DNA from: a virus
Taxonomy: Duplodnaviria > Caudoviricetes
Virus record (IMG/VR): IMGVR_UViG_3300020152_000004
Span: 1-56,832 of that record
Reading direction: 5' to 3' (one strand)
Length of the DNA: 56,832 nucleotides
The notes under the pieces were generated by a model. The model saw only the letters and a program-made list of their open reading frames with translations, ran no database searches and was not told the DNA's origin. Positions 8,055-56,832 of this stretch are shown one piece after another. The stretch's first letter is position 1. Each line of letters starts with the position of its first letter. The position numbers and the translations under genes were made by a program.

Positions 8055-8083
8055 TTGAGGCACCGCCCGCCCCGCGGTAGATT
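8055..8083 (+). promoter_or_regulatory. sigma70-type promoter for the lysis operon
   Basis: TTGAGG(8055-60)-17 nt-TAGATT(8078-83) in an intergenic gap. Confidence 0.6.
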
Positions 8084-8128
8084 ATTCCAACAGAACGCCG
8101 CGCCCTGGGCATTCGCCGGGCGGCGGCC

Positions 8129-8144
8129 GGCTCTTCCGTGGGTC
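8129..8144 (+). promoter_or_regulatory. Putative antiterminator hairpin, copy 1 (GGCTC-TTCCGT-GGGTC)
   Basis: 5-bp stem including two G-U pairs, UUCCGU loop; 3' arm overlaps the terminator 5' arm. Confidence 0.6.
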
Positions 8145-8180
8145 ACTCGTGCAATGCGCGCGAGTGGCCCTTTTTCGTTT
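8140..8180 (+). terminator. Intrinsic terminator in the lysis-operon leader
   Basis: 13-bp stem gggtcactcgtgc/gcgcgagtggccc followed by tttttcgttt, just upstream of the holin ATG. Confidence 0.8.
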
Positions 8181-13549: not shown

Positions 13550-13860
13550 TGGCCAGAATCGGGTCCACCGTCCGGCTGACTTTCACGTTCCGCGCCTTCC
13601 CCGTGCCTCCGGCAACGGTAGGGGAGCTGGCCGACTCGAGCACGCCGGTCATGATCCAGCCGATGAAGGGGAAGAAGGCGATCGGCAGCCCGATCAACCT
13701 GATGGAGGCCGGCGGCTCACACCCCAGCCTGGGCGTCTACCAGTACGACTACGTCATCCCGGACGTCGACGCACCGGTGATCACGATCGAGGCGACCGGC
13801 ACCATCGAAGGGACGCCGTCAGTGGCGCGGGAAGGGATTCCGATCAGCTGGGGGGCGTAG
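13549..13860 (+). CDS. Small Ig-like/BppU-like structural protein
   Basis: GSTVRLTFTF...GVYQYDY; last gene of the late rightward transcript. Confidence 0.5.
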   Translation: MARIGSTVRLTFTFRAFPVPPATVGELADSSTPVMIQPMKGKKAIGSPINLMEAGGSHPSLGVYQYDYVIPDVDAPVITIEATGTIEGTPSVAREGIPISWGA

Positions 13861-15859
13861 CGGATTTAAGATGATCAGGAAGGTACTGGCTGTGCGTGCG
13901 TTTGAGGTAGTCCAATCCTGCCGCACGATCAGCGGTAAACTGCAGCTTTTCCTCGAACATCTTCAAGCGCGCCTTACAGTCGTTGATGACCTCTGACCAT
14001 GATTTGACCCACACCGTCATCCGCAGCTGGGAGTTCTGGTAGAGGATACCGCGTGGCCGGTTGTCCTGCTGAATCTCACTACGTACGTCGGGATGGATGT
14101 CATTCGAGACAGCCCAGAACACCCACTTCGTTTCAAGATCCCGAAATCTCTCGTCGCGTTGAACCGCCAAGGCATAGCTCTTAATCTGTTGAGCCACATT
14201 CGGAGTGATTTTCTGCCTGGGTCGTTTTAGCTCGACAACCAAATGCTCTCGCTTGCTGGCATCCTGATGGTAGATGAGCCGTGACAACATCAAGTCGATG
14301 ATACCGTCGGATCCATCGCTGCGCACCACGGGAACATGGGCATCTGTTTTCTCGCCCTCGTCCTGAAGTGGGTCCTCTACTGGCCGCAGGTGCGTGGATC
14401 GATGCTGGAGAAGCACTTCATTCAATGACTCATCGTCGACAGTCAGATTGTACTCCTCTCCGAATATCCACGTCTCTCGCGCTAGGATCCGATGCAGTTC
14501 CTTACGTTCGAGTAGGGTTTTCTTTGAGACAGGATCGTAAAGCAGGATTTCTAGCCCGCGGATAAACTCCAACCGTTCCGCAACCATATTGGCGGCCTCA
14601 ATGACCGCCGAGAGTGATGTCCGTTCTAGAAGTCGGGCAAGCTCATTCTGTTTGTCCGAGGGCAAGGCCAAGACATCGCGGAAGATGCGCTGCAGCGCTT
14701 CTGGGTTCTCCTTAAGGGCGCCTTTAAGTAGTTCGAACGAAAACTTCTTGCTGGTGGGATCTGCCTCTGCGAACGAAGGCATATAGTTGTTGACGTTGAT
14801 CGCGAGAACGTCGAACATCTGCCGTTCGACCTGCTCGACCACGTCCCTCGGCTGGCCTTGATACGGGTATACCTTGTCTCGCTTCCATTCCTCCACGAGA
14901 TCCGCTCGTTGCTCTGCCGCGCGCGCTCTAAAATGATCGCGAAGCTGCTTTTTCGCGGCGGCAACAATGGGCTCAAGCACCGGATTCTCTGGTCCCAGTT
15001 CCAACAAGTTGGCTTCTTCGAGTTCCTTAATATAAGAGGTTCGCAAATAGCAAGTATACGAAAACCCCGGCGCATGAATCCGCGGCTGGAAAGAGAACAA
15101 AGAGAACCCATTCGCGTCACACAAATGCAACGATCTACTAAATTCGGTCTTCCACTCGACGATCGTTAGCACCATGTCGTGGATCCATGTGCCACCCGGA
15201 ACCTGTACGGAATCAAGCCTGTATTCTTGAACGTGCAGCTCAAGGTCTGCTGGATGCAGGCGGCTCTTGTGGTATACGACCGAGATGTCCGGGTAGTTGC
15301 GGAGATATAGTGCAAAGAGCTCCAGCAGTTCTTCGCGGGTCGATTGCTTCAAAAGGTGCGCAAGGTTGGGACGCACGCTGCCGATAGACACCGTGGTTCC
15401 TGTCTGGGTATCATCGCTCGGGATCGAATCGGAGATGTCGAATTGACGGATATCCTGCTTTGATCCCTTGATTCTGAACTCCTGCAGGCGACCAGGTTCC
15501 CCCGTGACGGTTCTCCACTCGACGTCCTCACCTAGTGCGTAGGCCCTTAACCTGCCTTTGCCTTCCTTCCCATGAATGGTTCGGCCGCGCGTGCGAGTTT
15601 TCTGACGGTTTCTCTTCCATGAACCGCCAATGCTCCCAAAGCCCGCCTCGGCGTCAGCTTCGGTCATCCCTGTACCGTTATCGGTGACCGTTATGCCGGC
15701 GATGCTCCCGTTCAACAGACTCTGGTCAAAATCGACCCGGATCAGCGTCGCATCAGCGTCGAGCGCATTCCAAACCAGTTCCGCCAAGGCGACAACGGGG
15801 CGGGCGTTCGTGAGCGCGTGAACGTGGTCGGATGCTACCTTCATTGTTACGCGCTTCAA
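13844..15859 (-). CDS. GHKL (HATPase_c/MORC-like) ATPase fused to a C-terminal PD-(D/E)xK nuclease; putative anti-phage moron
   Basis: ELVWNALDA, DNGTGM, GKEGKGR, GTTV GHKL motifs; WIFGEEY, IDLML, VVELKRP, QIKSY nuclease motifs; TTG start at 15859 after a GGAGGGAGG RBS; more AT-rich than flanks. Confidence 0.8.
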   Translation of the reverse strand: MKRVTMKVASDHVHALTNARPVVALAELVWNALDADATLIRVDFDQSLLNGSIAGITVTDNGTGMTEADAEAGFGSIGGSWKRNRQKTRTRGRTIHGKEGKGRLRAYALGEDVEWRTVTGEPGRLQEFRIKGSKQDIRQFDISDSIPSDDTQTGTTVSIGSVRPNLAHLLKQSTREELLELFALYLRNYPDISVVYHKSRLHPADLELHVQEYRLDSVQVPGGTWIHDMVLTIVEWKTEFSRSLHLCDANGFSLFSFQPRIHAPGFSYTCYLRTSYIKELEEANLLELGPENPVLEPIVAAAKKQLRDHFRARAAEQRADLVEEWKRDKVYPYQGQPRDVVEQVERQMFDVLAINVNNYMPSFAEADPTSKKFSFELLKGALKENPEALQRIFRDVLALPSDKQNELARLLERTSLSAVIEAANMVAERLEFIRGLEILLYDPVSKKTLLERKELHRILARETWIFGEEYNLTVDDESLNEVLLQHRSTHLRPVEDPLQDEGEKTDAHVPVVRSDGSDGIIDLMLSRLIYHQDASKREHLVVELKRPRQKITPNVAQQIKSYALAVQRDERFRDLETKWVFWAVSNDIHPDVRSEIQQDNRPRGILYQNSQLRMTVWVKSWSEVINDCKARLKMFEEKLQFTADRAAGLDYLKRTHSQYLPDHLKSATPPS

Positions 15860-16125
15860 GACCCGACCCTCCCTCCAACGGTAGCTGACGAGGCGTCCCT
15901 CCGCCTCGCGTTCTCGACCAACTCCCCGATCGCCGCGAACAGTTCCTCGCTGTCCACATCCGGATCCACCGGAATCACCCCTGAATACCAGCGGTGACGG
16001 TCCGTTCGGCGAAGCCCGACCCACCAAGTGGGGTTCCCGCGCTCGAGCGCCATGCGGCCGCCGATCGGCTCCAGCTCGTATGCGATCTCCCATGTGCCGG
16101 ACGGGCGTTCAACAAAACGGGTCAC
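15856..16125 (-). CDS. Hypothetical protein
   Basis: 89 aa, 4-bp overlaps with both neighbours. Confidence 0.55.
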   Translation of the reverse strand: MTRFVERPSGTWEIAYELEPIGGRMALERGNPTWWVGLRRTDRHRWYSGVIPVDPDVDSEELFAAIGELVENARRRDASSATVGGRVGS

Positions 16126-19897: not shown

Positions 19898-19970
19898 TGC
19901 GGGGAGCTGAACTGGTGGACAGCTGAGGCCCATACCCTCGGTACGGTGGGTTCGATTCCCACCCCCGCTA
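19898..19970 (+). tRNA. Atypical tRNA with CAT anticodon (fMet-like); possibly a pseudo-tRNA
   Basis: TGCGGGG/CCCCGCT acceptor with 1:72 mismatch; D arm GCTG/CAGC; anticodon arm TGAGG-CCCATAC-CCTCG; T arm GTGGG-TTCGATT-CCCAC; no encoded CCA. Confidence 0.7.
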
Positions 19971-20227: not shown

Positions 20228-20419
20228 ATGGCGGATGTCGCGTCGACCGCTGCTGACCTCTGCCCGAACTGCAAAGGGGAGGGGACCGTCACGCGCCAGG
20301 TGTCCGTCGATGACGGATACCATGAGGACTATCGGAACGAATTGATTCCGACGGTTGCGATGGACGTCGAGGTCCGCTGTGGCGAGTGCGGCGGCGAAGG
20401 CGTCCTGTCCGATGAGTAA
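20228..20419 (+). CDS. Small DnaJ-type Zn-finger protein
   Basis: CPNCKGEG and CGECGGEG (CxxCxGxG twice). Confidence 0.65.
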   Translation: MADVASTAADLCPNCKGEGTVTRQVSVDDGYHEDYRNELIPTVAMDVEVRCGECGGEGVLSDE

Positions 20420-29115: not shown

Positions 29116-30972
29116 ATGACGTTCCCGCAGTTTCATCTAGACTTGCACGACGAGCTGATCGTCGACCTGTTCGCCGGCGGCGGCGGCGCCTCCGACGGCA
29201 TCCGTGAGGCGCTGGGGCGCGAGTCTGACATCGCGATCAACCATGACGCCGCGGCCGTCGCGCTCCACAAGCTGAATCACCCTCAGACCCACCATCACAC
29301 GTGCGACGTCTTCGAGGTCGACCCCCGGACCGTCACCGGCGGTCGCCCGGTCGGACTGCTCTGGGCGTCGCCGGACTGCACGTATCACAGCAAGGCGCGG
29401 GGCGCGAAGCCGATACGGCACGCGAACAAGAAGCGCCGCGCGCTCGCCTGGGTCGTGACCCGCTGGTGCGCGCAGATGAAGCCCCGCGTGGTCATGCTCG
29501 AGAACGTCGAGGAGTTCGTCCACTGGGGCCCGCTCGTCGCGAAGCGCGACCCAGAGACCGGCCGCGTGCTGAAGCTGGTGAACCCGGGCGCGGACATGGA
29601 CGATGCGGACGAGTCGAAGCGGCCGAAGTACGTGGTCGCGGAACCGGGAGAGGTCGTGCCGGTGGAGCTCCAGGCTCTCACGCCGGACCCGCGCCGCCGC
29701 GCGAAGCATTTCCGCCGCTGGTTACGCTCCCTCGAGGAGCTGGGCTACGTCGTCGATTACAGGGAACTGAAGGCATGCGACTTCGGTGCACCGACGATCC
29801 GCAAGCGGCTGTTCCTCGTCGCGCGCTGCGACGGGCAGCCGATCGTGTGGCCGGAGCCGACGCACGGACCAGGGCGCGCGTATCCGTACCGCACGGCCGC
29901 CGAGTGCATCGACTGGTCAATCCCCATGCTCTCCATCTTCGCGACGAAATCGGAGGCGCGTGCGTGGGCGAAGAAGCTCGGCCAGGCGATCCCGATCCGT
30001 CCGCTCGCCGAAGCGACGATGCGGCGCGTTGCGCGCGGCGTCATGCGGTATGTGGTGAATGCGGCCCGGCCGTTCATCGTCCCCATCCAGAACGCCAGTG
30101 GCCGCGGAGCGCAGAGCGCGGACGAGCCGCTACGCACAGTGACCGCAATGCCAAAGGGAGGCGGCTTCGCTGTCGCAGCGCCGATGCTGGTACCGCGCTA
30201 TGGCGAGCGCGACGGGCAGGAGCCGCGCGTGCGCTCAACCGAGCAGCCGCTCGCGACGATTGTAGCCACCGACAACGGCGGCAGCCTCGCCGCCGCACAG
30301 CTTGCGACCTACTACGGATCGAAGTCCGATCGTGACGTGCGCGGGTCGGCAATGTCGGAGCCCGTCGACACAATCCCGACGGAGAACCGTCACGCGCTCG
30401 TCGCGTCGTTCATGGCGCGGCACTACGGCGGCGTGGTGGGCAAGGATCTTCGGGAACCCCAGGGTACCGTTCTCTCGAAGGGCGCGCAGGACCAGCTCGT
30501 CGCCGCTCACCTGTCGCACATGTATACGAGCAATACGGCCGGTGGGCAGGGCGATCCAACGCAGCCGCTCAAGACGCAGACGACGGCCAATCACGCCGGT
30601 CTGATCTACGGGTTCCTGCAGAAGTACTACGGCCAGGGCATCGGTCAGGATGCAGGCGCGCCGATGGACACCATCACGACGAAGGACCGGTTCGGCATCG
30701 TGATGGTCACGGTCGACGGCGTTCTGTTCGCGATCGTCGATATCTGCATGCGCATGCTGCAGCCGCGCGAGCTGTACAACGCGCAGGGCTTCTCGCCCAA
30801 CTACCGCATCAACTGCCAGGTCTGGGACATGACACGGAAGAAACCGCGCTGGCGCTGGCTGACGAAGACTGAGCAGGTCCGGATGGTCGGCAACAGCGTA
30901 TCCCCGCCAGTCGCCACCGCACTCGCAGCGGCGAACGTCCCCGAGCTCGCAATGCGCAAGGTGGCCGCATGA
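29116..30972 (+). CDS. DNA (cytosine-5) methyltransferase
   Basis: DLFAGGGG, ASPDC, ENV, RKRLF, GNSV motifs; repeated P..T(I/V) modules. Confidence 0.93.
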   Translation: MTFPQFHLDLHDELIVDLFAGGGGASDGIREALGRESDIAINHDAAAVALHKLNHPQTHHHTCDVFEVDPRTVTGGRPVGLLWASPDCTYHSKARGAKPIRHANKKRRALAWVVTRWCAQMKPRVVMLENVEEFVHWGPLVAKRDPETGRVLKLVNPGADMDDADESKRPKYVVAEPGEVVPVELQALTPDPRRRAKHFRRWLRSLEELGYVVDYRELKACDFGAPTIRKRLFLVARCDGQPIVWPEPTHGPGRAYPYRTAAECIDWSIPMLSIFATKSEARAWAKKLGQAIPIRPLAEATMRRVARGVMRYVVNAARPFIVPIQNASGRGAQSADEPLRTVTAMPKGGGFAVAAPMLVPRYGERDGQEPRVRSTEQPLATIVATDNGGSLAAAQLATYYGSKSDRDVRGSAMSEPVDTIPTENRHALVASFMARHYGGVVGKDLREPQGTVLSKGAQDQLVAAHLSHMYTSNTAGGQGDPTQPLKTQTTANHAGLIYGFLQKYYGQGIGQDAGAPMDTITTKDRFGIVMVTVDGVLFAIVDICMRMLQPRELYNAQGFSPNYRINCQVWDMTRKKPRWRWLTKTEQVRMVGNSVSPPVATALAAANVPELAMRKVAA

Positions 30973-31487
30973 CACGCATGTCAGCGAACCAGCTCGACAC
31001 CGTCGCCTCGAAGATTCTCGAGGGCCTGCTCGTCCACATGCCCGACGTCCCGCCCGACAAGCTCGAGCTCATTCTCGCGCGCGTCGCACGGATGCATCGC
31101 GAGCGCGTGGAGCAGAGCGAGGCCGCCGGCGTAGCTGCAATCGAGGAAGCCGCGCGCGCGGAAGCCGTTGAGCGGATGCAGCGAGCGGAAGCCCTCATGC
31201 TCGCGCGCCAGGCGGAGGCGAAGCAGCGCGATGAGGTGATCGAGAAGCAGCGGCAGGGTGTAGCCGCCGCGCGTCTCGCGCGTGCAATCAAGGACGGCGC
31301 TGGGTCGCCCCTGAAGCGGAAGAAGAAGTTCCCGGTGCTCGTCGGGCAGATCCGCGCGCTGCGCCGGGATAATCCGACGATCAAGCAGTCAGCCGCATTG
31401 CGCCATTTCGAGACGATGTATGGCCCGAAGTACCTATCGGGTCCGGGCTTCCGCGTCTACTGGCTGGAGGCGACGGGGCCGCGATGA
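30969..31487 (+). CDS. Hypothetical protein
   Basis: 172 aa, ATGA-coupled. Confidence 0.55.
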   Translation: MTRMSANQLDTVASKILEGLLVHMPDVPPDKLELILARVARMHRERVEQSEAAGVAAIEEAARAEAVERMQRAEALMLARQAEAKQRDEVIEKQRQGVAAARLARAIKDGAGSPLKRKKKFPVLVGQIRALRRDNPTIKQSAALRHFETMYGPKYLSGPGFRVYWLEATGPR

Positions 31488-32038
31488 GTTACATGACCCA
31501 CCGGGCAACGAATCATCCCCAACAAGTCGCTGCGAATGGAGTGCGCGACGACGTAGACGATCGCGCGACGACGCCCGAACTGTTCGCGAAAATACACGCG
31601 CGATTCGGATTTACTATTGACGCTGCAGCGGCTTCTCATAACGCGAAGCTTCCGCGCTTCTTCGACCGAGCGACATGCGGCCTGTCGCAGCCGTGGGCGG
31701 GCGAGCGCGTGTGGTGCAACCCTCCGTACAGCCGGATCCGCCCGTGGATCGAAAAGGCGTGGGCGTCTGAAGACGCGCCGCTGATCGTGATGATCCTGCC
31801 TGCGAACCGTACCGAGCAGGGCTGGTGGCAACATCTCGTCGAGCCGTTCCGGGACCGTCCGGGCTCAGTTCTTCGAACGGAGTTCCTCCCCGGACGCATT
31901 CGGTTCCTTAAGCCTGGACAAAGCAGGATCGGGCCGAACGAGCGCTCTCCATTCGGCTGCGTTCTGCTCATCTGGGACCGGCATAACACAACCGCGGCCT
32001 CCCCGCGGCCGCATATCCCCAATCACCCGGGAAGATAG
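31484..32038 (+). CDS. Phage DNA N6-adenine methyltransferase (Dam family)
   Basis: TTPELF, FTIDAAA, GLSQPW, VWCNPPYS, LPANRTE..WW, GRIRF. Confidence 0.88.
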   Translation: MSYMTHRATNHPQQVAANGVRDDVDDRATTPELFAKIHARFGFTIDAAAASHNAKLPRFFDRATCGLSQPWAGERVWCNPPYSRIRPWIEKAWASEDAPLIVMILPANRTEQGWWQHLVEPFRDRPGSVLRTEFLPGRIRFLKPGQSRIGPNERSPFGCVLLIWDRHNTTAASPRPHIPNHPGR

Positions 32039-38248: not shown

Positions 38249-39689
38249 CCCGTTCGGGCCGGGATGGATCACGGAACCACTCAACGACGCCAATTGCCCG
38301 CACTGTGTTGCCGGATGCACATGCCTCCGTGTTTGGCCCGCCTCACCAGCAGTGCAGGTAGACGCAGCCACGACACTCGCGGAGCTGGATCACATTCTCG
38401 GCTCGGTGGACATACCGCACGCACGCAACGGCGTCATGGTGCCGATCATCGAGCGAGCAGAGCAGTTTCGGGACACGGTGCGCAGGCAGGATAGCATAAT
38501 TGAGGCGCTGAAGGCGGGCGCTCCCGTCATCAAGTGCTGCGAGCATTGCGAACTGTGCGCGGCCGAACGGGACGACCCGGACAATCCGTGGGAACCAGCT
38601 AAAGGGGGCGACGAGCCGGGGATGCTAAAGCACTCCGGGTCCGCAGAAGCGGTCCAGCTCTCGCCTGCCCCCGATCAGTTACGGAGCGCGCTGGAGAAGA
38701 TCGTCGGGCTGACGTTCGACTCGCCGCTCGATCCGCCGCCATACAACGATCGGTCCCACATGCACAACAAGATCGTGCTTGTGAATCGCGCCGCACGGCA
38801 GGCGCTCGACGCATGGGCGGCCATGCAGCCCGACGCCGAGCGGGTAGAAGCAGCCACGATTCCGGATACGACCCTCATGGACACGTATATCGGTCCGGTT
38901 CGGTTGCAGCCCGACGCCTCACAGGCAGCCGCGATTCAGGACGACATGCGGACGCTGCTGGAGCTGCTCGGGCTACCGACGCACGCGCGGGATAAATCGC
39001 CTCGGGAAGTCATGCAGGGCGAAATCATTCCTGCCGTCCGTGGACTCGTGCAGCCCGACGCCGAGCGGGGCACAGTGCAGGCTATGCCGATCATCGAGGT
39101 GCGGCAGATGGATTGGATACCGGGATTCGCCGCGTTCGTGGACGGCGCCGAAGGTCCGCAAGGCGAGGCGCAGGTCGTGCTCAACGTGGGCGCGCTGGTC
39201 GCAGCCGTGGACATGGAAGACATCGACGCATCGGAGGTGCCGTACTTCGTGGCCGAGAGCATCATGCACGAAGTCATGCACGTACTGGAAAAATGGGCGG
39301 GTGTCGAGTTCAGCGAGGATCGCATCGAAGCCCTCACGGATCGCTACCGTGCCGCCGCATCTGGCGCTCCTGAGAGTGTCGTAAAGGGAGAGGCAATCAG
39401 CGCACCGGCAGAGCGAGCAGCGAAAGCTTGGATAGCCGGCGTAGCGACGAGGACGAGCCAGCGTTATACGCTTGCCTGCAACCCTGCCGCATACGCCCGC
39501 GACGTTGCTGATCTCACTGCCCTGATCGCCCGCGAGTTCGGGGCCGCGCACACCGATGGAGTGAAAGAACGGGCAGAGCGGATCGCACGGGAGTTTTACT
39601 GCCACATGATCGTTGAGGCAGAGGTCGCTCGCCTCGCAGCACGGATCGCCCGCGAGTTCGGACCCGATGGGCAGGAGGATGCACGATGA
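38241..39689 (+). CDS. Mosaic hypothetical protein with HExxH motif
   Basis: GGGAGG RBS; modules separated by QPDA repeats; IMHEVMH; IAREF three times. Confidence 0.65.
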   Translation: MGNPFGPGWITEPLNDANCPHCVAGCTCLRVWPASPAVQVDAATTLAELDHILGSVDIPHARNGVMVPIIERAEQFRDTVRRQDSIIEALKAGAPVIKCCEHCELCAAERDDPDNPWEPAKGGDEPGMLKHSGSAEAVQLSPAPDQLRSALEKIVGLTFDSPLDPPPYNDRSHMHNKIVLVNRAARQALDAWAAMQPDAERVEAATIPDTTLMDTYIGPVRLQPDASQAAAIQDDMRTLLELLGLPTHARDKSPREVMQGEIIPAVRGLVQPDAERGTVQAMPIIEVRQMDWIPGFAAFVDGAEGPQGEAQVVLNVGALVAAVDMEDIDASEVPYFVAESIMHEVMHVLEKWAGVEFSEDRIEALTDRYRAAASGAPESVVKGEAISAPAERAAKAWIAGVATRTSQRYTLACNPAAYARDVADLTALIAREFGAAHTDGVKERAERIAREFYCHMIVEAEVARLAARIAREFGPDGQEDAR

Positions 39690-39958
39690 GCGACGAGCTG
39701 GTTACGGTCGAGGAGCTGCGCGAGTTCGCCGCCGAGATGACGCGGGCGTCCGAGCTGTACCGCACAAATTCCAAGTTCGCCCCGGATGAAGCACGGCGAG
39801 CGCCACGACCCGCAACCGTTCTGATCGTTGATCTTTCAATCTGGGTTGGTGTAGCTTTGAACATAGACGTCATGAGTTCCGGACCTTCCGCGGTCCCCTT
39901 CCTTGCGCCGAGATGCGCAACGGAAGCGGGACCGCGCGTCGTTGTAGGAGACAGGTAG
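39686..39958 (+). CDS. Hypothetical protein (3' half overlaps the late promoter/leader; possibly a remnant)
   Basis: GGAGGA RBS and ATGA overlap support the start; C-terminal half looks non-coding. Confidence 0.35.
   Translation: MSDELVTVEELREFAAEMTRASELYRTNSKFAPDEARRAPRPATVLIVDLSIWVGVALNIDVMSSGPSAVPFLAPRCATEAGPRVVVGDR
39828..39857 (+). promoter_or_regulatory. sigma70-type promoter for the Zn-ribbon regulator / packaging operon
   Basis: TTGATC(39828-33)-18 nt-TAGCTT(39852-57) in an AT-rich patch. Confidence 0.5.
39881..39936 (+). promoter_or_regulatory. UUCCGC-loop hairpin (copy 3) and competing 20-bp hairpin
   Basis: GGACC-TTCCGC-GGTCC (39881-96) overlaps cgcggtccc-cttcc-ttgcgc/gcgcaa-c-ggaag-c-gggaccgcg (39889-936); no U-tract; AGGAG RBS 10 nt downstream. 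Confidence 0.65.
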
Positions 39959-39959
39959 C

Positions 39960-40229
39960 ATGAGCCGACCACCACTGCGCGCATACCGCGGGAAGGTCTA
40001 CCGATGCGCGGATCCACTCTGCGGCCGCAAGCGGGAGCGTGATGCATTCGGCCAGTGGCGCATTTACAAATGCGACAACTGCGGGCTCGACATGTACGTG
40101 GAGGCTCGCGCGGACAAGACGGAAGTCGTGGGACTGACGCCCGAGCAGGCGACATACATCCGGCAGAACCTGGATGGCGCCGGGCCCGGTGAGGTTCTGT
40201 TCTTCCTGGGCGTCGCCGAGTCGCTATGA
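39960..40229 (+). CDS. Small C4 Zn-ribbon protein (Com-like; candidate late regulator)
   Basis: RCADPLCGR...YKCDNCG, basic N-terminus; directly downstream of the conserved leader element. Confidence 0.65.
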   Translation: MSRPPLRAYRGKVYRCADPLCGRKRERDAFGQWRIYKCDNCGLDMYVEARADKTEVVGLTPEQATYIRQNLDGAGPGEVLFFLGVAESL

Positions 40230-40237
40230 CGGCGAGA

Positions 40238-40432
40238 TCACCGCTTCATCTCGCGGGCGACGTCGCGCAGCGCGCGGAGAAGGAACGGAGGAGCTGCGCG
40301 GTGGTGCGGAGATCCCGCCGGCTGCTCCCATCGCCAGACCGTGTGCCTATTGACGTCCAGGGCCGACGCCAGCTCGTCCAGCGTCATGCGCAGCCGGCGC
40401 TCGCGGAAGGTTCGGATTTCGTCGGGCGTCAT
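40238..40432 (-). CDS. XRE-family HTH protein
   Basis: MTPDEIRTFRERRLRMTLDELASALDVNRHTVWRWE. Confidence 0.8.
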   Translation of the reverse strand: MTPDEIRTFRERRLRMTLDELASALDVNRHTVWRWEQPAGSPHHRAAPPFLLRALRDVAREMKR

Positions 40433-40520
40433 GACGAAACGCTATCCCTCGTGAAACTGGCGCGCACCGCTCAACGGGCGTACCGTGTGCCGTTGGCACA
40501 CTGGAAATGGAGCGCAGAGC

Positions 40521-40703
40521 ATGAGGGATCTTCACAGCCGGGCGGCGCAGCTGGTCAAGGACGCATTCGAGCGTTCACGCGAACGGGAGATCGAGATCCG
40601 CGCCGAGAGCTGGCCACAGGACCCGCCAGCCGATGCGAACGCGGACTCGCAGGCGTGGGCCTATGTGCTGGCCGTGCTCGAGGAGCGAAAACCACCGAAG
40701 TAG
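40521..40703 (+). CDS. Hypothetical protein
   Basis: GGAG RBS, 60 aa. Confidence 0.5.
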   Translation: MRDLHSRAAQLVKDAFERSREREIEIRAESWPQDPPADANADSQAWAYVLAVLEERKPPK

Positions 40704-40710
40704 GAATGCC

Positions 40711-42090
40711 ATGAGGATCATCAACGAAACCACGGAGCTGGTACCTGTCACGCAGCTCCGGCCGCACCCGAAGAACGCGCGCGCCGGCGACGTTGATGAA
40801 ATCCATTCGAGCATCCGGGACAATGGCTTCTACGGGTCGCTGGTCGTGCAGCGATCGACCGGGTACATCCTCGCAGGTAACCACCGCTTCCAAGGCGCGC
40901 TGCGCGCCGGCGCGCGCACGCTGCCGGTCACTTGGGTCGACGTTGACGACACCACGGCGCTCCGCATCCTGCTCGTCGACAACCGCACGAACGACCTCGC
41001 CGGGTACGATGATGTCGCGCTGACCAACCTGCTTGAGGAGATCCTCGAGGAGAGCGGCACCCTGGACGGGACCGGCTACGACCGTGACGCACTGGACGAG
41101 CTGCTCGCGCATGTCGCGGAGGAGGAAGCCCGCGACGAGGGCGACACGTTGATCGTCCTCCCCGAGGCGCCGAAGTCCCAGCGCGGGGAGGTGTATGAGC
41201 TCGGGCCGCACCGGCTGATGTGCGGCGACAGCACGGACCTCCGCGACGTGCAGCGGCTGATGGGCGGCGATCGCGCGCACCTCGTGAATACGGACCCGCC
41301 ATATGGTGTGTCGTACCAGGGCACGGGGTTCGACGTCATCCAGAATGACAACCTGCGCGGCGACGATCTGCTGAGCATCTTGATGCCGGCGCTGCAGCTC
41401 GCGGCCGAGTTCGCGGTGGAGAACGCGGCGTTCTACATCTGGCACGCCAGCTCGACGCGGAAAGACTTCGAGTGGGCCATGGACGCGGCCGGCCTCGAGG
41501 AGAAGCAGTACATCCTCTGGGCCAAGGACTCATTCGTCCTCGGGCACGCCGACTACCACTGGCAGCACGAGCCCTGCTTTTATGCCCGGAAGGTCGGCTG
41601 CACCCCACCGTTCTATGCCGACCGCACTCAGAGTACCGTGTGGCGGTTCGCCGCTCGGCGCGCATCCGGCGAACGGAGCGTCGCGCTCGCGAACGGGATC
41701 CGCATATCCAACGGCGCCGGGGCCGAGGTTTACGTTCAGCCGCAGGCGCCGAAGACGCGCCGCACGCGTCTCGTCCGCCTGCACGCCGGCGAATCAGTGC
41801 TGCTCGTCCCCGGACCGGGCGGTGTCACGGACCTCTGGGACGTGAAGCTGGACACCGATGCGTACCAGCATCCCACGCAGAAGCCTGTCGCGCTCGCGGT
41901 GAACGCGATTCAGAACAGTTCGCGCCCAGGCGACATCGTGCTCGACCTGTTCGGTGGTGGGGGATTCACGCTGCTCGGAGCGGAGGCCACAAAGCGCGTC
42001 GCGCGCGTAATGGAGCTGGACCCGCGCTACTGTGACGTCATCCGCCGTCGCTACGCCGAATTCGCGGGTCGGCCGGAGCTCGCGCCGTGA
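40711..42090 (+). CDS. ParB-like N-domain fused to a DNA N4/N6 methyltransferase
   Basis: PHPKNAR...AGNHR...DNR ParB motifs; TDPPYGV, HPTQKPV, VLDLFGGGG, ELDPRYCDVI. Confidence 0.9.
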   Translation: MRIINETTELVPVTQLRPHPKNARAGDVDEIHSSIRDNGFYGSLVVQRSTGYILAGNHRFQGALRAGARTLPVTWVDVDDTTALRILLVDNRTNDLAGYDDVALTNLLEEILEESGTLDGTGYDRDALDELLAHVAEEEARDEGDTLIVLPEAPKSQRGEVYELGPHRLMCGDSTDLRDVQRLMGGDRAHLVNTDPPYGVSYQGTGFDVIQNDNLRGDDLLSILMPALQLAAEFAVENAAFYIWHASSTRKDFEWAMDAAGLEEKQYILWAKDSFVLGHADYHWQHEPCFYARKVGCTPPFYADRTQSTVWRFAARRASGERSVALANGIRISNGAGAEVYVQPQAPKTRRTRLVRLHAGESVLLVPGPGGVTDLWDVKLDTDAYQHPTQKPVALAVNAIQNSSRPGDIVLDLFGGGGFTLLGAEATKRVARVMELDPRYCDVIRRRYAEFAGRPELAP

Positions 42091-42707
42091 AGAATCTCCG
42101 CTGCTCGGACTTCGGTGGCCGGCGGAAGTCGGGAGCTGCGTGCGGCCGTGCGCCTGGGTGGGGCACGGACAAGGACACGGGCCCATGCAAGGACCACGTG
42201 GCCATCGTGGCCGCTGCGGCCGAGACCGGCATCAAGGTCCGGAACCAGACCGCGTTCCTGGCAGCGATGCGGCGCACAGGCAACATCAGCGCGGCCGCGC
42301 GCGCGGCGAACGTCGACCGCTCGATGCATTACACGTGGCTCGAGCAGGACTTCAACTACCGAAAGTCATTCGAGGACGCCAAGGCGGAGTCGATCGAGGT
42401 CCTCGAGGCGGAAGCGCGGCGCCGCGCGATCGCCGGCATCAAGCGGCTGAAGTTCACACGCAATGGCAAGCCGATCATCGATCCGAAGACCGGCGAGCCC
42501 TATGTGGAGCACGCGTACAGCGACACCCTGCTGATCTTCCTGCTGAAGGCGGAGGCGCCGGAGAAGTACCGCGAGCGCCTGGACGTCAGCGGACCCGGGG
42601 GCGGTCCAATCGCGACGGTGGCGGAGCACAGTCTGAGCGGGAAGTCTCTCGCCGAGCTCGCGGCCATGCGCGCTACGCTGCTCGCACAGTCGGCCGGCAC
42701 CGAATGA
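42087..42707 (+). CDS. Terminase small subunit
   Basis: FL......GNISAAARAANV.RS..Y.W, LEAEARRRA, YSDTLLIFLLK...PEKYRE; N-terminal C..C..C..H Zn motif. Confidence 0.82.
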   Translation: MKNLRCSDFGGRRKSGAACGRAPGWGTDKDTGPCKDHVAIVAAAAETGIKVRNQTAFLAAMRRTGNISAAARAANVDRSMHYTWLEQDFNYRKSFEDAKAESIEVLEAEARRRAIAGIKRLKFTRNGKPIIDPKTGEPYVEHAYSDTLLIFLLKAEAPEKYRERLDVSGPGGGPIATVAEHSLSGKSLAELAAMRATLLAQSAGTE

Positions 42708-46209: not shown

Positions 46210-46701
46210 ATGACTGACACGGAGACCGAAACGATCAAGGACTGGTCACCCGGCGTACTGCGTGACTTTGCCCATCTCTTCTGCGGCGAGCATCTGGGTG
46301 GCGGCATCGGACGACAGGTCTATGTTCTGCTGACCGATCCCACCAAGGTTGTGAAGATCGAGACCCAGGCGTACAGCTTCCAGAACGCACTCGAGTGGTC
46401 GACATGGAAGGAACTGTCGGAGACGAAACTGTCGCAGTATCTGGCGCCATGCCATTTCATCTCCCCGTGCGGCATGGCCCTGATCCAATCGCGGGTTCAG
46501 CCCCTGCCAACCGCGGCTGAGGAGAAGGCCGCGGGGACGAACGTGCTGAAGGACGTGAGGCTGCCGCGGTTCCTGACAGACTTCAAACGCGGCAATTACG
46601 GGATCCTCGACGGACGGGTCGTGGCATGTGACTACGGGACCCACCTGGCGATCGGCTACGGCGCCACGCGCCACCTGCGGAAGCCCGACTGGTGGGAATG
46701 A
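46210..46701 (+). CDS. Minimal protein-kinase-like protein
   Basis: HLGGGIGRQVY Gly loop, VVK lysine, NALE alphaC Glu, DFKRGN catalytic loop, DYG. Confidence 0.75.
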   Translation: MTDTETETIKDWSPGVLRDFAHLFCGEHLGGGIGRQVYVLLTDPTKVVKIETQAYSFQNALEWSTWKELSETKLSQYLAPCHFISPCGMALIQSRVQPLPTAAEEKAAGTNVLKDVRLPRFLTDFKRGNYGILDGRVVACDYGTHLAIGYGATRHLRKPDWWE

Positions 46702-47204
46702 CGCTGAAGGTGCGGCCGGAAGCTGCCGCCCAGATCGCGCAGCTCTGCGCAGATGCCCCCCAGCTGGAAACCGGCGGCGTCCTCGTCGGCTGGAGGTACA
46801 ATGAGGTCGCCGCGGAGGTGGTCCATGCGACCGGGCCGGGACCGAATGCCCTACTACAGGCCCGGGAGATGGAGTGGGACCCGAGCTACATCCAGGGCAT
46901 CATGGACGGAATCCAGCTCACCCGGGGGGGCTTTGGCATCATCGGGCGCTGGCACAAACACGCCGCTCCCGTCATACTTGCGAGTCAGCAGGATCGGCAC
47001 GGCGCCGAATGGTTCCGGATGGCGATCGCACCGGAAGACGCCACGGTGGAGCTGATCGTCGGGACCGGCGAAAATGACATGCCGCTCGCCTACGGTGCAT
47101 ATCTATGTACGTGCGACGGACTGCAGCGAATCGAGTGCGAGACGGACGCCACTGATGATGAAGAGCTTTCCCCCCGCCAACTGGCGCCAGCAGATACGGC
47201 GTAA
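46698..47204 (+). CDS. JAB/Mov34/MPN+ (JAMM) metalloprotease
   Basis: ETGGVLVG...ATGPG...WHKH-x7-SQQD gives a complete E/HxH-x7-SxxD motif; ATGA-coupled to the kinase. Confidence 0.85.
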   Translation: MTLKVRPEAAAQIAQLCADAPQLETGGVLVGWRYNEVAAEVVHATGPGPNALLQAREMEWDPSYIQGIMDGIQLTRGGFGIIGRWHKHAAPVILASQQDRHGAEWFRMAIAPEDATVELIVGTGENDMPLAYGAYLCTCDGLQRIECETDATDDEELSPRQLAPADTA

Positions 47205-47415
47205 CCTGCCGTTCCCGCCGGGACGCGGAGACGACGAGTTCGAAGCCATCATCACGAAGTTCCAGCAGGTTTATCAGCTCAATCTTGCCACGGGTGAAGT
47301 GTTCGTCCGGACCGGTGCGCACACATGGGATCAGCCCGCGTGGCTGGAGCTGCCGGACGTCGTGCGCGCCCGTATCCACGAGGCACTCAAAAACAGAGAT
47401 ACGTTGACGCAGTAA
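47155..47415 (+). CDS. Hypothetical protein
   Basis: 86 aa, last gene before the capsid-operon promoter. Confidence 0.5.
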   Translation: MMKSFPPANWRQQIRRNLPFPPGRGDDEFEAIITKFQQVYQLNLATGEVFVRTGAHTWDQPAWLELPDVVRARIHEALKNRDTLTQ

Positions 47416-47433
47416 CTCTGACGTTTATACATT
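47404..47433 (+). promoter_or_regulatory. sigma70-type promoter for the capsid operon
   Basis: TTGACG(47404-09)-18 nt-TACATT(47428-33). Confidence 0.7.
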
Positions 47434-47478
47434 CAGATCGTTCGCCATAGAGCAAAGCGCTCGAACCGGCAAGTCGTA

Positions 47479-47496
47479 TCGACCTTCCGCGGTCGG
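47479..47496 (+). promoter_or_regulatory. Putative antiterminator hairpin, copy 2 (TCGACC-TTCCGC-GGTCGG)
   Basis: 6-bp stem with UUCCGC loop overlapping the terminator 5' arm. Confidence 0.65.
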
Positions 47497-47542
47497 ACCC
47501 ACCTCGAGAAATCGGGGAACGGGCCCGGCCGCTTTTTTGTTT
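47489..47542 (+). terminator. Intrinsic terminator in the capsid-operon leader
   Basis: gcggtcggaccc...cctcga-GAAA-tcgggg...gggcccggccgc followed by ttttttgttt. Confidence 0.8.
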
Positions 47543-54573: not shown

Positions 54574-56832
54574 ATGTCCGGAGAAATTGCACGGCTATGG
54601 GCAACGCTCGGGGTCAATGACACCGAGCATCGCGTCAAGATGGCGGCCGCAGAGAGCCGCTTTCAGTCGTTGCGCCGGACAGCGTCCACCGTCACGACCG
54701 CCCTGGCCAGCGTGGGTCTCGCAGTCGGGATTCGCGAGCTCACGCAGTACGCAGACACCTGGAAGCTGGTCGAGGGCCGCCTCAAGCTCGTTTCAGGTTC
54801 GACCACCGAGCTGCGCACCGTCCAATCCGAGCTTTTCCGCATTGCGCAGGAAGCCCGCACTCCATTTGACCAGACGGCGGACATCTATGCGCGGATGGCT
54901 CGCAATGCAGACGGCCTGAACGCCTCCCAGAGCCAGATGCTGACCGTTACGCGCGCCATCAGTCAATCGATGGCCGTGTCCGGTGCTTCGACCGAATCTG
55001 CGCGCGCCGCCCTCATCCAGCTCAATCAGGCGTTCGGAAGCGGCGTCCTCCGCGGGGAAGAGCTCAACAGCGTCCTCGAGCAGGCGCCGCGCCTCGCAGA
55101 AGCTATCGCCACCGGCATGGGCGTAACCGTGGGTGAGCTGCGCGCCTTGGGCGAGCAAGGGAAACTCACCGCAGAGGAAGTATTCCAAGCGCTGCTCGGC
55201 CAATCCACCGCGATCGAGCGTGAATTTGCCGACATGCCCAGGACCGTCGGGCAGGCCCTCACGCAAGTCCGCAACAGCATTATGAGGCAGATCGGCGAGA
55301 TCGACCGATCATCGGGAGCCACGGCGGCGCTTGCGGCCGGCATTGGATCCATCGCCGATAACATGCGCGCACTGGTGGGCGCCATCGGGATCGCCGCAGC
55401 TGCGCTCACCGGACGATTCCTGGTTTCACTGGGAGCTGCCGGCGCCGCGAAGATCCAGTCCGCGCGGCACTCGCATGCGCTCGCACTGGCCGAGCGCGCT
55501 CAGGCTGCCGCATCGCTTGACGCCGCGCGCGCGTCGGAGGTAGAGGCCGCGGCCAAGGTCAGGGAGCTGCAGGTCACTCGTGCCGCGATCGAGCTGTCGC
55601 GGCAGGAGACGGTAGCCGCCCTCCAGCGCAACCAGGCTTTCCTCTCTCGCGCGGTCCCAATCGAGAACCTGCGTCCGCTCGGACATGCTGCGGTCGAGCG
55701 GGAGCTACTGCGACGTGCGCAGGCGACGCAGGCAGTATCTGCGGCGACGGGGGAGCTGGCAGTGCTGGGGCAGCAGCAGGCTCGCATCAATGCCGCGCTG
55801 TCAGGTGCGACGATGAGCGTTGCTGCCGCCGCCGGCGTCGCGGAGGCCCGCGTAACCGCCTTGGCGGCTGCCAGCGCGCGCGCGTCCATTGCGCAGCGAG
55901 CCATGGCCGCGTCATCCGCGCTCATGAGCCGGGCGATGGCTTTCCTGACCGGTCCGTGGGGCATTGCGCTCACGGCGCTCGCGATCGGATTCATGGCGTT
56001 GCGGAAGCCGACGGATGACAGTGCCGCGAGCATGACTGACGCAAGCGAGGCCGCGGACCAGCTCCGGACAGCGTATTCCAACCTCTCACGCGAACAAGTG
56101 ACCGCCGCGAAGACCGCCGCGGCCCTCGCCGTGGAACAGACCCGAGCCCAGATCAAAATGCTCGAGCTGCAGCGCCAGGCTGCGGAGAAAGGAAAGCCCT
56201 CTACGGCCGGTGTTGCCGCACGTGCGATCCTCCCGTCAATCGGCGCCAGCATCGCCACCCGCCTGCCGCAGGTTCGCCTTAACCCGGAGGACCAGGCCGC
56301 CATCGCGTCCACCGAGGCTCTGGACGACGCGATCTCGCAGCTGAACCGCGTACTCGAGATGCAGCAGGGACTCCTGTCGGGCGCGTCGACGGCGCTCGAC
56401 CGATACGGTGAGGAGAGTTCGGACGCGTTCAACAAGATCATCGAGGGCCTCCGCGAGCAGCGCGCGGAGTTCGAGGGCGGAGAACGGGCAGCGTTCCAGT
56501 ACTCGCTCTCGACACGCGACCTGACCGACTCACAGGAGGCAGCGGCGCTCGCGGAGTGGGACCTGACGGAGGCCGCGCGCAGATCGAGGGAGGCACGTGA
56601 GGAGGCGCAGCGCACCAACCAGCAGCTGAAGGAGCGAGTCGCGGACCTGAATCAGGAGATGGCGATCGAATACGAGAGGCTGACTCGCGGGGAAGACGCT
56701 GCGTACGCGCTGCAGCTGGCAACGGAAGGACTCTCGGCCGCTGAAGTCCGAGCGCTGGTGACGAAGCGAGCGGTCAACCGAGAACTCGCTGAAAGTCAGG
56801 AGCGAGAGAAGGACCGCCTCAAAGACCTGGCC
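54574..56832 (+). CDS. Tail tape measure protein, N-terminal part (continues at 128-688)
   Basis: ATG 54574; ADTW..EGRLKLV, ALIQLNQAFGSGVLRGEELNSVLEQAPRLA, GELRALGEQGKLT tape-measure domain; open to the window end. Confidence 0.92.
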   Translation, partial: MSGEIARLWATLGVNDTEHRVKMAAAESRFQSLRRTASTVTTALASVGLAVGIRELTQYADTWKLVEGRLKLVSGSTTELRTVQSELFRIAQEARTPFDQTADIYARMARNADGLNASQSQMLTVTRAISQSMAVSGASTESARAALIQLNQAFGSGVLRGEELNSVLEQAPRLAEAIATGMGVTVGELRALGEQGKLTAEEVFQALLGQSTAIEREFADMPRTVGQALTQVRNSIMRQIGEIDRSSGATAALAAGIGSIADNMRALVGAIGIAAAALTGRFLVSLGAAGAAKIQSARHSHALALAERAQAAASLDAARASEVEAAAKVRELQVTRAAIELSRQETVAALQRNQAFLSRAVPIENLRPLGHAAVERELLRRAQATQAVSAATGELAVLGQQQARINAALSGATMSVAAAAGVAEARVTALAAASARASIAQRAMAASSALMSRAMAFLTGPWGIALTALAIGFMALRKPTDDSAASMTDASEAADQLRTAYSNLSREQVTAAKTAAALAVEQTRAQIKMLELQRQAAEKGKPSTAGVAARAILPSIGASIATRLPQVRLNPEDQAAIASTEALDDAISQLNRVLEMQQGLLSGASTALDRYGEESSDAFNKIIEGLREQRAEFEGGERAAFQYSLSTRDLTDSQEAAALAEWDLTEAARRSREAREEAQRTNQQLKERVADLNQEMAIEYERLTRGEDAAYALQLATEGLSAAEVRALVTKRAVNRELAESQEREKDRLKDLA
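56706..56832. repeat. 127-bp terminal direct repeat (copy 2)
   Basis: Identical to 1-127; implies a circular unit of 56705 bp. Confidence 0.97.

Follow-up and report, generated by a model that had tools for sequence, protein, structure and literature searches.

The Znr gene (39960-40229, plus strand) lies in the window, i.e., the whole analysed stretch of 56,832 nucleotides, and encodes an 89-aa putative C4 zinc-ribbon protein; it was delimited by its ORF, its codon GC pattern and a homologue in a second phage, C228. The frame starts where the earlier note had placed it, and its cysteines (C16, C21, C38 and C41) form the pattern CxxxxC-x16-CxxC. The GC content by codon position was 0.68/0.48/0.77, which was like the coding signature of the genome. 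An AGGAG ribosome-binding site (39946-39950, plus strand) was present 9 nt 5' of the ATG and 9 nt 3' of a long stem, rather than the 10 nt after the stem that had been given before. The product had also been described as basic. This description applied to the first 50 residues (+5.5), whereas the last 39 residues were acidic (-4.2), and the protein overall was weakly basic (pI 8.4, net +1.5).

In a soil metatranscriptome library, three contigs were identical to the phage (42018-42274, 44829-45109 and 45849-46017; TerS and portal) and could be DNA carry-over. The same library had no contig on the Znr gene or the leaders, and no variants were seen. Among the DNA runs, one may be where the sequence came from, and pieces identical to the phage were also contained in a second soil sequencing run. 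The confinement of the RNA-library contigs to TerS and portal would suit the view that Znr is not a gene and represents a chance open frame between the hairpin and the adjacent helix-turn-helix (HTH) gene. This view is hardly credible, however, given the coding GC pattern of the frame, the AGGAG at ideal spacing and the homologous ORF of C228, which likewise shows this coding pattern and is preceded by an AGGAG. The frame is a genuine gene, and its product is a lineage-specific protein with a putative C4 zinc ribbon.

Upstream of Znr, a 90-aa ORF (39686-39958, plus strand) is coupled (ATGA) to the preceding 560-aa gene. The ORF is open across the promoter-like site and the hairpin of the leader before Znr (E3), and its stop codon ends 1 nt ahead of the Znr ATG. 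The coding GC3 signature was missing from the last ~45 codons of the ORF, and no counterpart was found in C228. Ribosomes on read-through transcripts of this ORF would melt the 20-bp hairpin. The next gene after Znr is the convergent 64-aa HTH gene (40238-40432, minus strand), which matched phrog_7950 'repressor' (E 1e-5). This gene opens a cassette (HTH, a 60-aa ORF and a ParB-methylase, up to 42090) between Znr and TerS, and it is divergent from the 60-aa ORF and the ParB-N6/N4 methylase (40238-40703). The cassette was missing from C228 and has the appearance of a methylase module that was inserted and is under HTH control. A perfect palindrome, TGTGCC-GTT-GGCACA (6-bp arms, 3-nt spacer), was observed at 40486-40500 within the 88-nt gap between these divergent genes; it did not recur at the leaders. 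The small terminase subunit gene (TerS, 42087-42707, plus strand) follows the cassette. In the TerS N-terminus, C6, C19, C34 and H37 were conserved in both phages (window 42087-42200; C228 L148 7399-7510) and may form a metal-binding motif.

The window carried an exact 127-bp direct repeat at both termini (1-127 = 56706-56832) and was rated 'complete' in IMG/VR; hence, it represents an entire phage genome (~56.7 kb). The G+C content was 65%, and the plus strand carried nearly all genes. Early and replication genes (SbcCD, several methylases, a DnaD-like protein and NUDIX) were located at ~18.5-39.7 kb, and the ParB-methylase, TerS, TerL and portal genes at 40.7-46.2 kb. The head, tail and tape-measure genes extended from 47.6 kb past the record end up to the tail fibre and spike, and the holin and endolysin genes were found from ~8.2 kb.

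The promoter-like pattern TTGA-N19/20-TANNTT had only three matches in the window (8055, 39828 and 47404), all of which were on the plus strand and headed the lysis, packaging and head modules, respectively. The number expected by chance was 0.26, and three matches were reached in 0/100 shuffles; the pattern was written after the sites had been seen, so that this count shows specificity and not discovery. Leader E1, before holin/endolysin (8055-8175, plus strand), has the promoter-like site TTGAGG-17-TAGATT at 8055-8083. Leader E2, before the head genes (47404-47538, plus strand), has TTGACG-18-TACATT at 47404-47433 and is orthologous to E2' of C228. The E3 promoter-like site (39828-39857, plus strand) consists of TTGATC, an 18-nt spacer and TAGCTT, and aligns with TTGATC..TAAGTT of C228. 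The sequence TTCCGY was present ~30-50 nt 3' of every -10 element, and the motif TTCCG[CT]GG.?TC had three matches, all at the leader elements. The loop motifs were mildly enriched by count (3 vs about 1 expected; 14-15/200 shuffles reached 3, p ~0.07), and these motifs, like the promoter pattern and the small helix, were defined on the very sequences used for counting. Moreover, the 14-mer GACCTTCCGCGGTC occurred twice in the window, in E2 and E3. In IMG/VR, the exact 14-mer was found in 110 stretches, and among the contexts listed no promoter-like site with a long hairpin was seen by eye; many of these stretches fell in one conserved coding gene. One weak MCP match was the only link to a protein. 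A search of the leaders against Rfam gave nothing at the gathering threshold and two chance rows at E <= 5.

Each leader contained a small hairpin of 5 bp with a 6-nt loop on the plus strand, namely GGCUC-UUCCGU-GGGUC in E1 (8129-8144), CGACC-UUCCGC-GGUCG in E2 (47480-47495) and GGACC-UUCCGC-GGUCC in E3 (39881-39896). A long hairpin was located downstream in each case. The E1 stem (8140-8170, plus strand) had 13 bp and was followed by T5 (8171-8175), and the compound E2 stem (47489-47532, plus strand) had 17 bp and was followed by T6 (47533-47538). The long hairpin of E3 (39889/90-39935/36, plus strand) was predicted with 19-20 bp, two 1-nt bulges and the 6-nt loop CGAGAU, in agreement with the 20-bp stem reported earlier before Znr. 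This hairpin alone had a folding energy of -36.8 kcal/mol, and the region folded better than shuffles (z -2.8, -2.7). The tail after the E3 stem was CGUCGUUGU, without a U-run; the uniqueness of E3 in this respect had been recognised before. The long hairpins of E1 and E2 were read as intrinsic terminators on account of the U-runs directly after their stems, and this predicted role is firm for E1 and E2 of the window only. The CGGAAG at 39921-39926, which had been described as complementary to the CTTCCG motif, was present, but in the predicted fold its GGAAG was paired with CUUCC (39898-39902) within the same stem and not with the upstream CUUCCG. The AGGAG and the Znr ATG were unpaired in the predicted MFE and centroid folds.

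The small and long hairpins overlapped by 5-7 nt in the three window leaders, and the two folds were mutually exclusive. The final two bases of the loop and the 3' arm of the small hairpin formed the base of the long hairpin in all three leaders; in E3, the last 7 nt of the small hairpin also belonged to the long stem, at its 5' base. The MFE structure of the nascent leader was the small hairpin (-4.3, -6.3 and -7.2 kcal/mol, with -7.2 for E3), and the full leader favoured the long hairpin by 6-10 kcal/mol. When the small hairpin was forced, the terminator base was removed or shortened. According to these predicted folds, the pair of hairpins is an antiterminator/terminator layout.

When each prokaryote species, represented by one genome, was scanned for TerL, a single related locus was obtained, the 57,516-bp contig G001:C228. 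In viral and metagenome contigs, TerL matches were confined to short parts and did not exceed 30% identity. C228 lies within a MAG labelled uncultured gammaproteobacterium, a bin label from which little can be said on the host. C228 was colinear with the window, with identities of 46% for TerS, 74% for TerL, 71% for portal, 72% for MCP and 36-48% for the early genes; the fibre and lysis genes of the window had no counterpart in C228. Apart from Znr, none of the window ORFs at 33.5-42 kb gave a tblastn match to C228 at E <= 1e-4. The promoter-like pattern occurred 25 times in the 2.9-Mb MAG, and three of these sites were on C228, all on the plus strand (early, before TerS and before the head genes). 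A further C228 leader with the -10 element TAGATT precedes a block ending in endolysin. The late leaders of C228 were sited as in the window, i.e., before the Znr homologue (Znr') and TerS, before the head genes and before the endolysin-ending block, and the three leader elements of the window are conserved at the same three places in this second phage. The gene upstream of leader 3 in C228 is on the opposite strand; hence, the leader-3 promoter must drive Znr'-TerS-TerL.

In 3/3 late leaders of C228, the long hairpin carried GGUCCCACG at its 5' base. E2 and E2' had the common inner loop CGAGAAAUCGG, and their outer stems were unlike. A simple terminator scan called 0/3 of the C228 leader hairpins because their U-tracts were interrupted. 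Furthermore, the first transcribed bases of C228 leaders 1 and 3 shared AGAGACAGUC (L151 13340-13360, L153 8205-8225), which may be a conserved initial-transcribed element; the window leaders had looser AGA-rich starts than those of C228. The -35 element TTGA was located 17-18 nt from the -10 element in five of the six leader promoters, and inspection by eye revealed no upstream dyad common to them. As the promoters looked complete, control after initiation is the natural reading.

The small hairpin of C228 had the same 5-bp/6-nt shape as that of the window, with the loop CCACGM vs UUCCGY. The loop was the same or nearly so inside each phage and different between the two phages. Over the six leaders, 29/30 cells of the small helix were paired, and changes on both sides were observed in 2/5 pairs (A-U/G-C/C-G and G-C/C-G). 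The covariation score was 0.63 vs 0.30 in shuffles, and 0/500 shuffles reached the pairing or the covariation score; these values refer to six related sequences from which the structure itself was derived, and the long stem places a further constraint on the 3' arm. In slid controls, 27-57% of the cells were paired. G-U wobbles were present in five cells and would be mismatches in a DNA palindrome. The three-copy leader is well supported as a conserved cis-regulatory RNA.

From leader 3 to TerS, C228 contained a single ORF, the Cys-rich 96-aa homologue of Znr, which has an AGGAG and a coding GC pattern. The stop of this ORF overlaps the TerS start (GTGA), with nothing between. The two proteins had a common MSR start, RCxDPxCGxK, the second Cys-Gly knuckle, V.GL.P and EVL, and pairwise BLASTP aligned the first knuckle only (E 0.002). 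Both combined a basic N-terminal zinc-ribbon half with an acidic C-terminal half. With 26% identity, vs 36-74% for the others, Znr was the most diverged protein shared by the two phages. It was found directly behind leader 3 in both of them despite differing neighbour genes.

Further relatives of Znr were searched for in sequence and structure collections. Nothing significant was obtained against Pfam, PHROGs, NCBIfam and the PDB sequences, and a Pfam scan at E <= 1 gave Desulfoferrod_N and HemX only, both below their own cut-offs. A relationship with TALE repeats, raised by matches to PDB sequences, was rejected as spurious (0 accepted stretches). In a k-mer/HMMER search and a full phmmer search of 1.84 billion representatives, Znr itself was the only real match; the seven other phmmer rows were read as chance, since they were long repetitive proteins matched in several short stretches. 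No homologues were found by the viral-contig scan or by tblastn against 50,697 phage records, and a two-protein profile (Znr and its C228 homologue) did not find a third family member. The Atlas look-alikes of Znr belonged to generic viral Zn_ribbon_8-type clusters.

The AF2 model of Znr from the single sequence was unusable (pLDDT 43). The model from a 2-row alignment (pLDDT 72.6) consisted of six short strands bearing the four Cys, followed by two helices; the pLDDT of this modelled C-terminal part was about 60-80, with an alignment of 2 rows. The Cys positions and beta strands fitted a zinc-ribbon fold, and the structural matches were weak. None of the Foldseek matches in PDB or BFVD reached E <= 0.001, and none from VIA reached Z >= 5. 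The best structural rows, all weak, were zinc-binding domains, namely LysW (E 0.35) and an IBR domain (Z 4.3, rmsd 2.5 over 56 residues). Com, Ogr and N were absent among the structural matches listed; no nucleic-acid-binding structural relative of the model was found. The predicted Znr-TerS complex had a score of 0.00, which made no call either way.

The resemblance to Com of phage Mu, on which the earlier reading was based, was also evaluated. Similar to Znr, Com is small and has an N-terminal C4 module with 16 residues between the Cys pairs. The two patterns are CxxC-x16-CxxC for Com and CxxxxC-x16-CxxC for Znr, and the BLASTP E value was 6.8. According to the Com study, Com has a CCCC zinc finger at the N-terminus and an intrinsically disordered C-terminal segment, and its target is a short RNA hairpin beside a larger inhibitory structure (PMC6483171). 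The C-terminal half of Znr, in contrast, was predicted to be helical. The inhibitory structure in the window is a predicted terminator or a plain hairpin with the ribosome site free, whereas that of Com hides the start signals, and there are three candidate targets per genome here and one for Com. Com has no solved structure for comparison. The proposed kinship with Com found no Pfam, PHROG, NCBIfam or structural match, and a Com-like translational mechanism did not agree with the unpaired Shine-Dalgarno sequence in the predicted folds. Hence, membership of Znr in the Com family fails, as its start site is unoccluded in these folds and no sequence or fold link exists. The likeness to Com concerns the arrangement (a small zinc protein together with a small hairpin next to a large inhibitory one) and does not assign Znr to that family. 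A com-mom-like pairing of zinc finger and methylase as a general arrangement was rejected, as 16 ParB-methylase loci shared no other window protein (comparison of 15 window proteins at E <= 0.01). In one of 16 viral loci, an unrelated 92-aa CxxC...CxxC ORF was observed 44 nt upstream of a ParB-methylase homologue (L006 545-823).

In E. coli, bglG, the regulator gene of the bgl operon, immediately follows a leader that is itself among the targets of the regulator. In lambda, N/boxB comprises a small fast-diverging phage protein and a 5-bp hairpin in a promoter-downstream leader, the loop of which differs between related phages. RAT-type antitermination and N/boxB are the closest mechanisms to the present layout by analogy. 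The RAT antiterminator hairpins overlap the 5' arm of the terminator, as do the small hairpins of the window leaders (5-7 nt here). In BglG/SacY/LicT, the short hairpin is stabilised by the protein and excludes the terminator (PMC5393181). The differences from this group are the CAT and PRD domains of BglG/SacY, which had no Pfam or NCBIfam match in Znr, the length of the hairpin, which is 16 nt here, and the phage setting. The traits reminiscent of N/boxB are the phage-specific loop in the nascent leader and the basic N-terminal half of Znr. However, boxB has a GNRA-like pentaloop and not a hexaloop, the hairpin here overlaps the terminator, and N is a bare arginine-rich motif where Znr has a zinc ribbon; no homology to N was found. 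The words 'zinc' and 'phage' are absent from the main text of a 2025 review of RNA-binding antiterminators (PMC12591593). A search for phage zinc-finger or zinc-ribbon antiterminators in a limited full-text collection gave only Q, P7, gp39 and unrelated papers.

The reading ranked first is that Znr is a phage-specific protein that would bind the small hairpin and block termination, a possibility proposed tentatively from the sequences of the two phages. Transcription of the leader would start at the sigma-70-like promoter, and the nascent RNA would first make the 5-bp hairpin with its phage-specific 6-nt loop. The much stronger downstream hairpin would then replace the small hairpin and act as an intrinsic terminator at the head and lysis leaders. 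Znr would bind the small hairpin in the nascent RNA and either hold it closed, so that the terminator would stay incomplete, or load onto RNA polymerase there. The head and lysis operons would thereby be switched on. As E3 is without a U-tract, the Znr gene would be transcribed without the factor, and the E3 hairpin could serve feedback or loading. We infer Znr as the factor, the RNA as the target and antitermination as the outcome. A loop particular to each phage calls for a reader of equal specificity, or at least one confined to the lineage. The antiterminator was placed first because Znr is the only gene kept at a leader, diverges fastest among the shared proteins and is situated behind the non-terminating copy, as is the case for bglG. 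Since this evidence is positional and a matter of co-divergence in two genomes, our confidence stays well short of even. The co-occurrence of gene and motif, proposed earlier as a check, was observed in 2/2 genomes; with two genomes only, the co-occurrence and the co-divergence have almost no statistical weight, and small proteins diverge fast anyway. A bolder version, somewhat more doubtful on the same sequences, is that Znr founds a new class, in which the zinc ribbon would read the hexaloop of the 16-nt hairpin and open the promoter-proximal terminators of the head and lysis operons, co-evolving with the loop as in N/boxB.

The position of Znr also bears on the opposite side. The translational coupling of its C228 homologue to TerS suggests a packaging role equally well, and a late-operon gene is an unusual location for a late-gene switch. 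Znr may thus be a packaging accessory in which the zinc ribbon acts with TerS, e.g., in packaging-site recognition. Leader 3 heads the packaging operon, which would then be the sole reason for the place of Znr behind it. This role is unlikely, although several observations agree with it: the gapless GTGA overlap in C228, the leading position of Znr in the TerS-TerL-portal operon of the two phages and the conserved Cys/His-rich TerS N-terminus. In the window, the 1.86-kb cassette with its convergent gene parts Znr from TerS, so that tight coupling is dispensable. Moreover, no match to any terminase-associated zinc-ribbon family was obtained, and the phage-specific leader loops would be left without a reader.

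The hairpins may also have a reader other than Znr. Other conserved proteins of unknown function (439, 488, 172 and 93 aa) could be the factor, and a host protein is possible as well. Znr would then be an unrelated small zinc ribbon (e.g., for host takeover, anti-defence or replication) that is the first ORF by accident, and the hairpins would be read by another phage protein, a host factor or none (leaky terminators, RNA-stability elements). This unrelated role is doubtful in itself and about as likely as the antiterminator. It is in line with a two-member family that has no functional homologue, with the generic Atlas look-alikes, with the frequency of small orphan zinc ribbons in phages and with the presence of the conserved proteins mentioned above. 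On the other hand, the place behind leader 3 was kept while the neighbours were exchanged, and the charge layout was conserved, the first zinc knuckle strongly so.

Regulation at the DNA level was considered as a further explanation, in which Znr would bind DNA and activate the three late promoters in the manner of Ogr/Delta or Q. Lambdoid Q and P2 Ogr/P4 Delta control late operons and are DNA-binding, and Q acts at a constitutive promoter closely followed by a terminator. Promoter-proximal terminators are a hallmark of Q-type control, and those of the window, a small C4 zinc protein and three look-alike late promoters would be compatible with such an activator. This explanation is nevertheless improbable. 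The pattern of P2 Ogr is CxxC-x22-CxxxxC, whereas in Znr the CxxxxC comes first and the spacing is 16; with this reversed order and a BLASTP E value of 0.46 over 4 residues, the Ogr-type activator that the earlier note had named as its counter-case was not borne out. Znr had no match to a Q-like PHROG at E <= 0.1, and none in Pfam. The target promoters of P2 Ogr/P4 Delta are without a -35 element and have an upstream dyad, and the leader promoters were unlike them in both respects. Furthermore, the conserved helix contains G-U pairs and lies within the transcript.

If the link between Znr and the hairpin is true, a zinc-ribbon fold with a compact 16-nt RNA site would join the few protein-RNA antitermination switches, and the timing of the packaging, head and lysis genes in an uncultured soil phage group would be explained. 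The natural protein/loop pairs (UUCCGY vs CCACGM) would be a ready specificity swap and possible orthogonal parts for synthetic transcription. Independently of whether Znr is the factor, the leader with its three copies constitutes a cis-regulatory RNA that has not been described before and matches no Rfam family.

Several other features of the genome were recorded. A tRNA-Met (CAT) gene was located at 19898-19970, where the rightward early region begins. A 63-aa acidic protein (20228-20419) contained two CxxCxGxG motifs (DnaJ-type zinc finger) and weakly matched a Q-like antiterminator PHROG (3e-5) and an anti-TRAP NCBIfam model (4.9e-5). A 749-aa minus-strand gene (13844-16093) in a low-GC stretch (55% vs 65%) matched phrog_6203, the function of which is not known. 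At least three DNA methyltransferase genes were present in the window (29116-32038, 40711-42090; phrog_116, phrog_111 and phrog_498), and of these only the 184-aa one had a counterpart in C228. A 170-aa protein (46692-47204) had a weak match to a prokaryotic JAB domain (4.6e-5, just below the cut-off) and was kept in C228.
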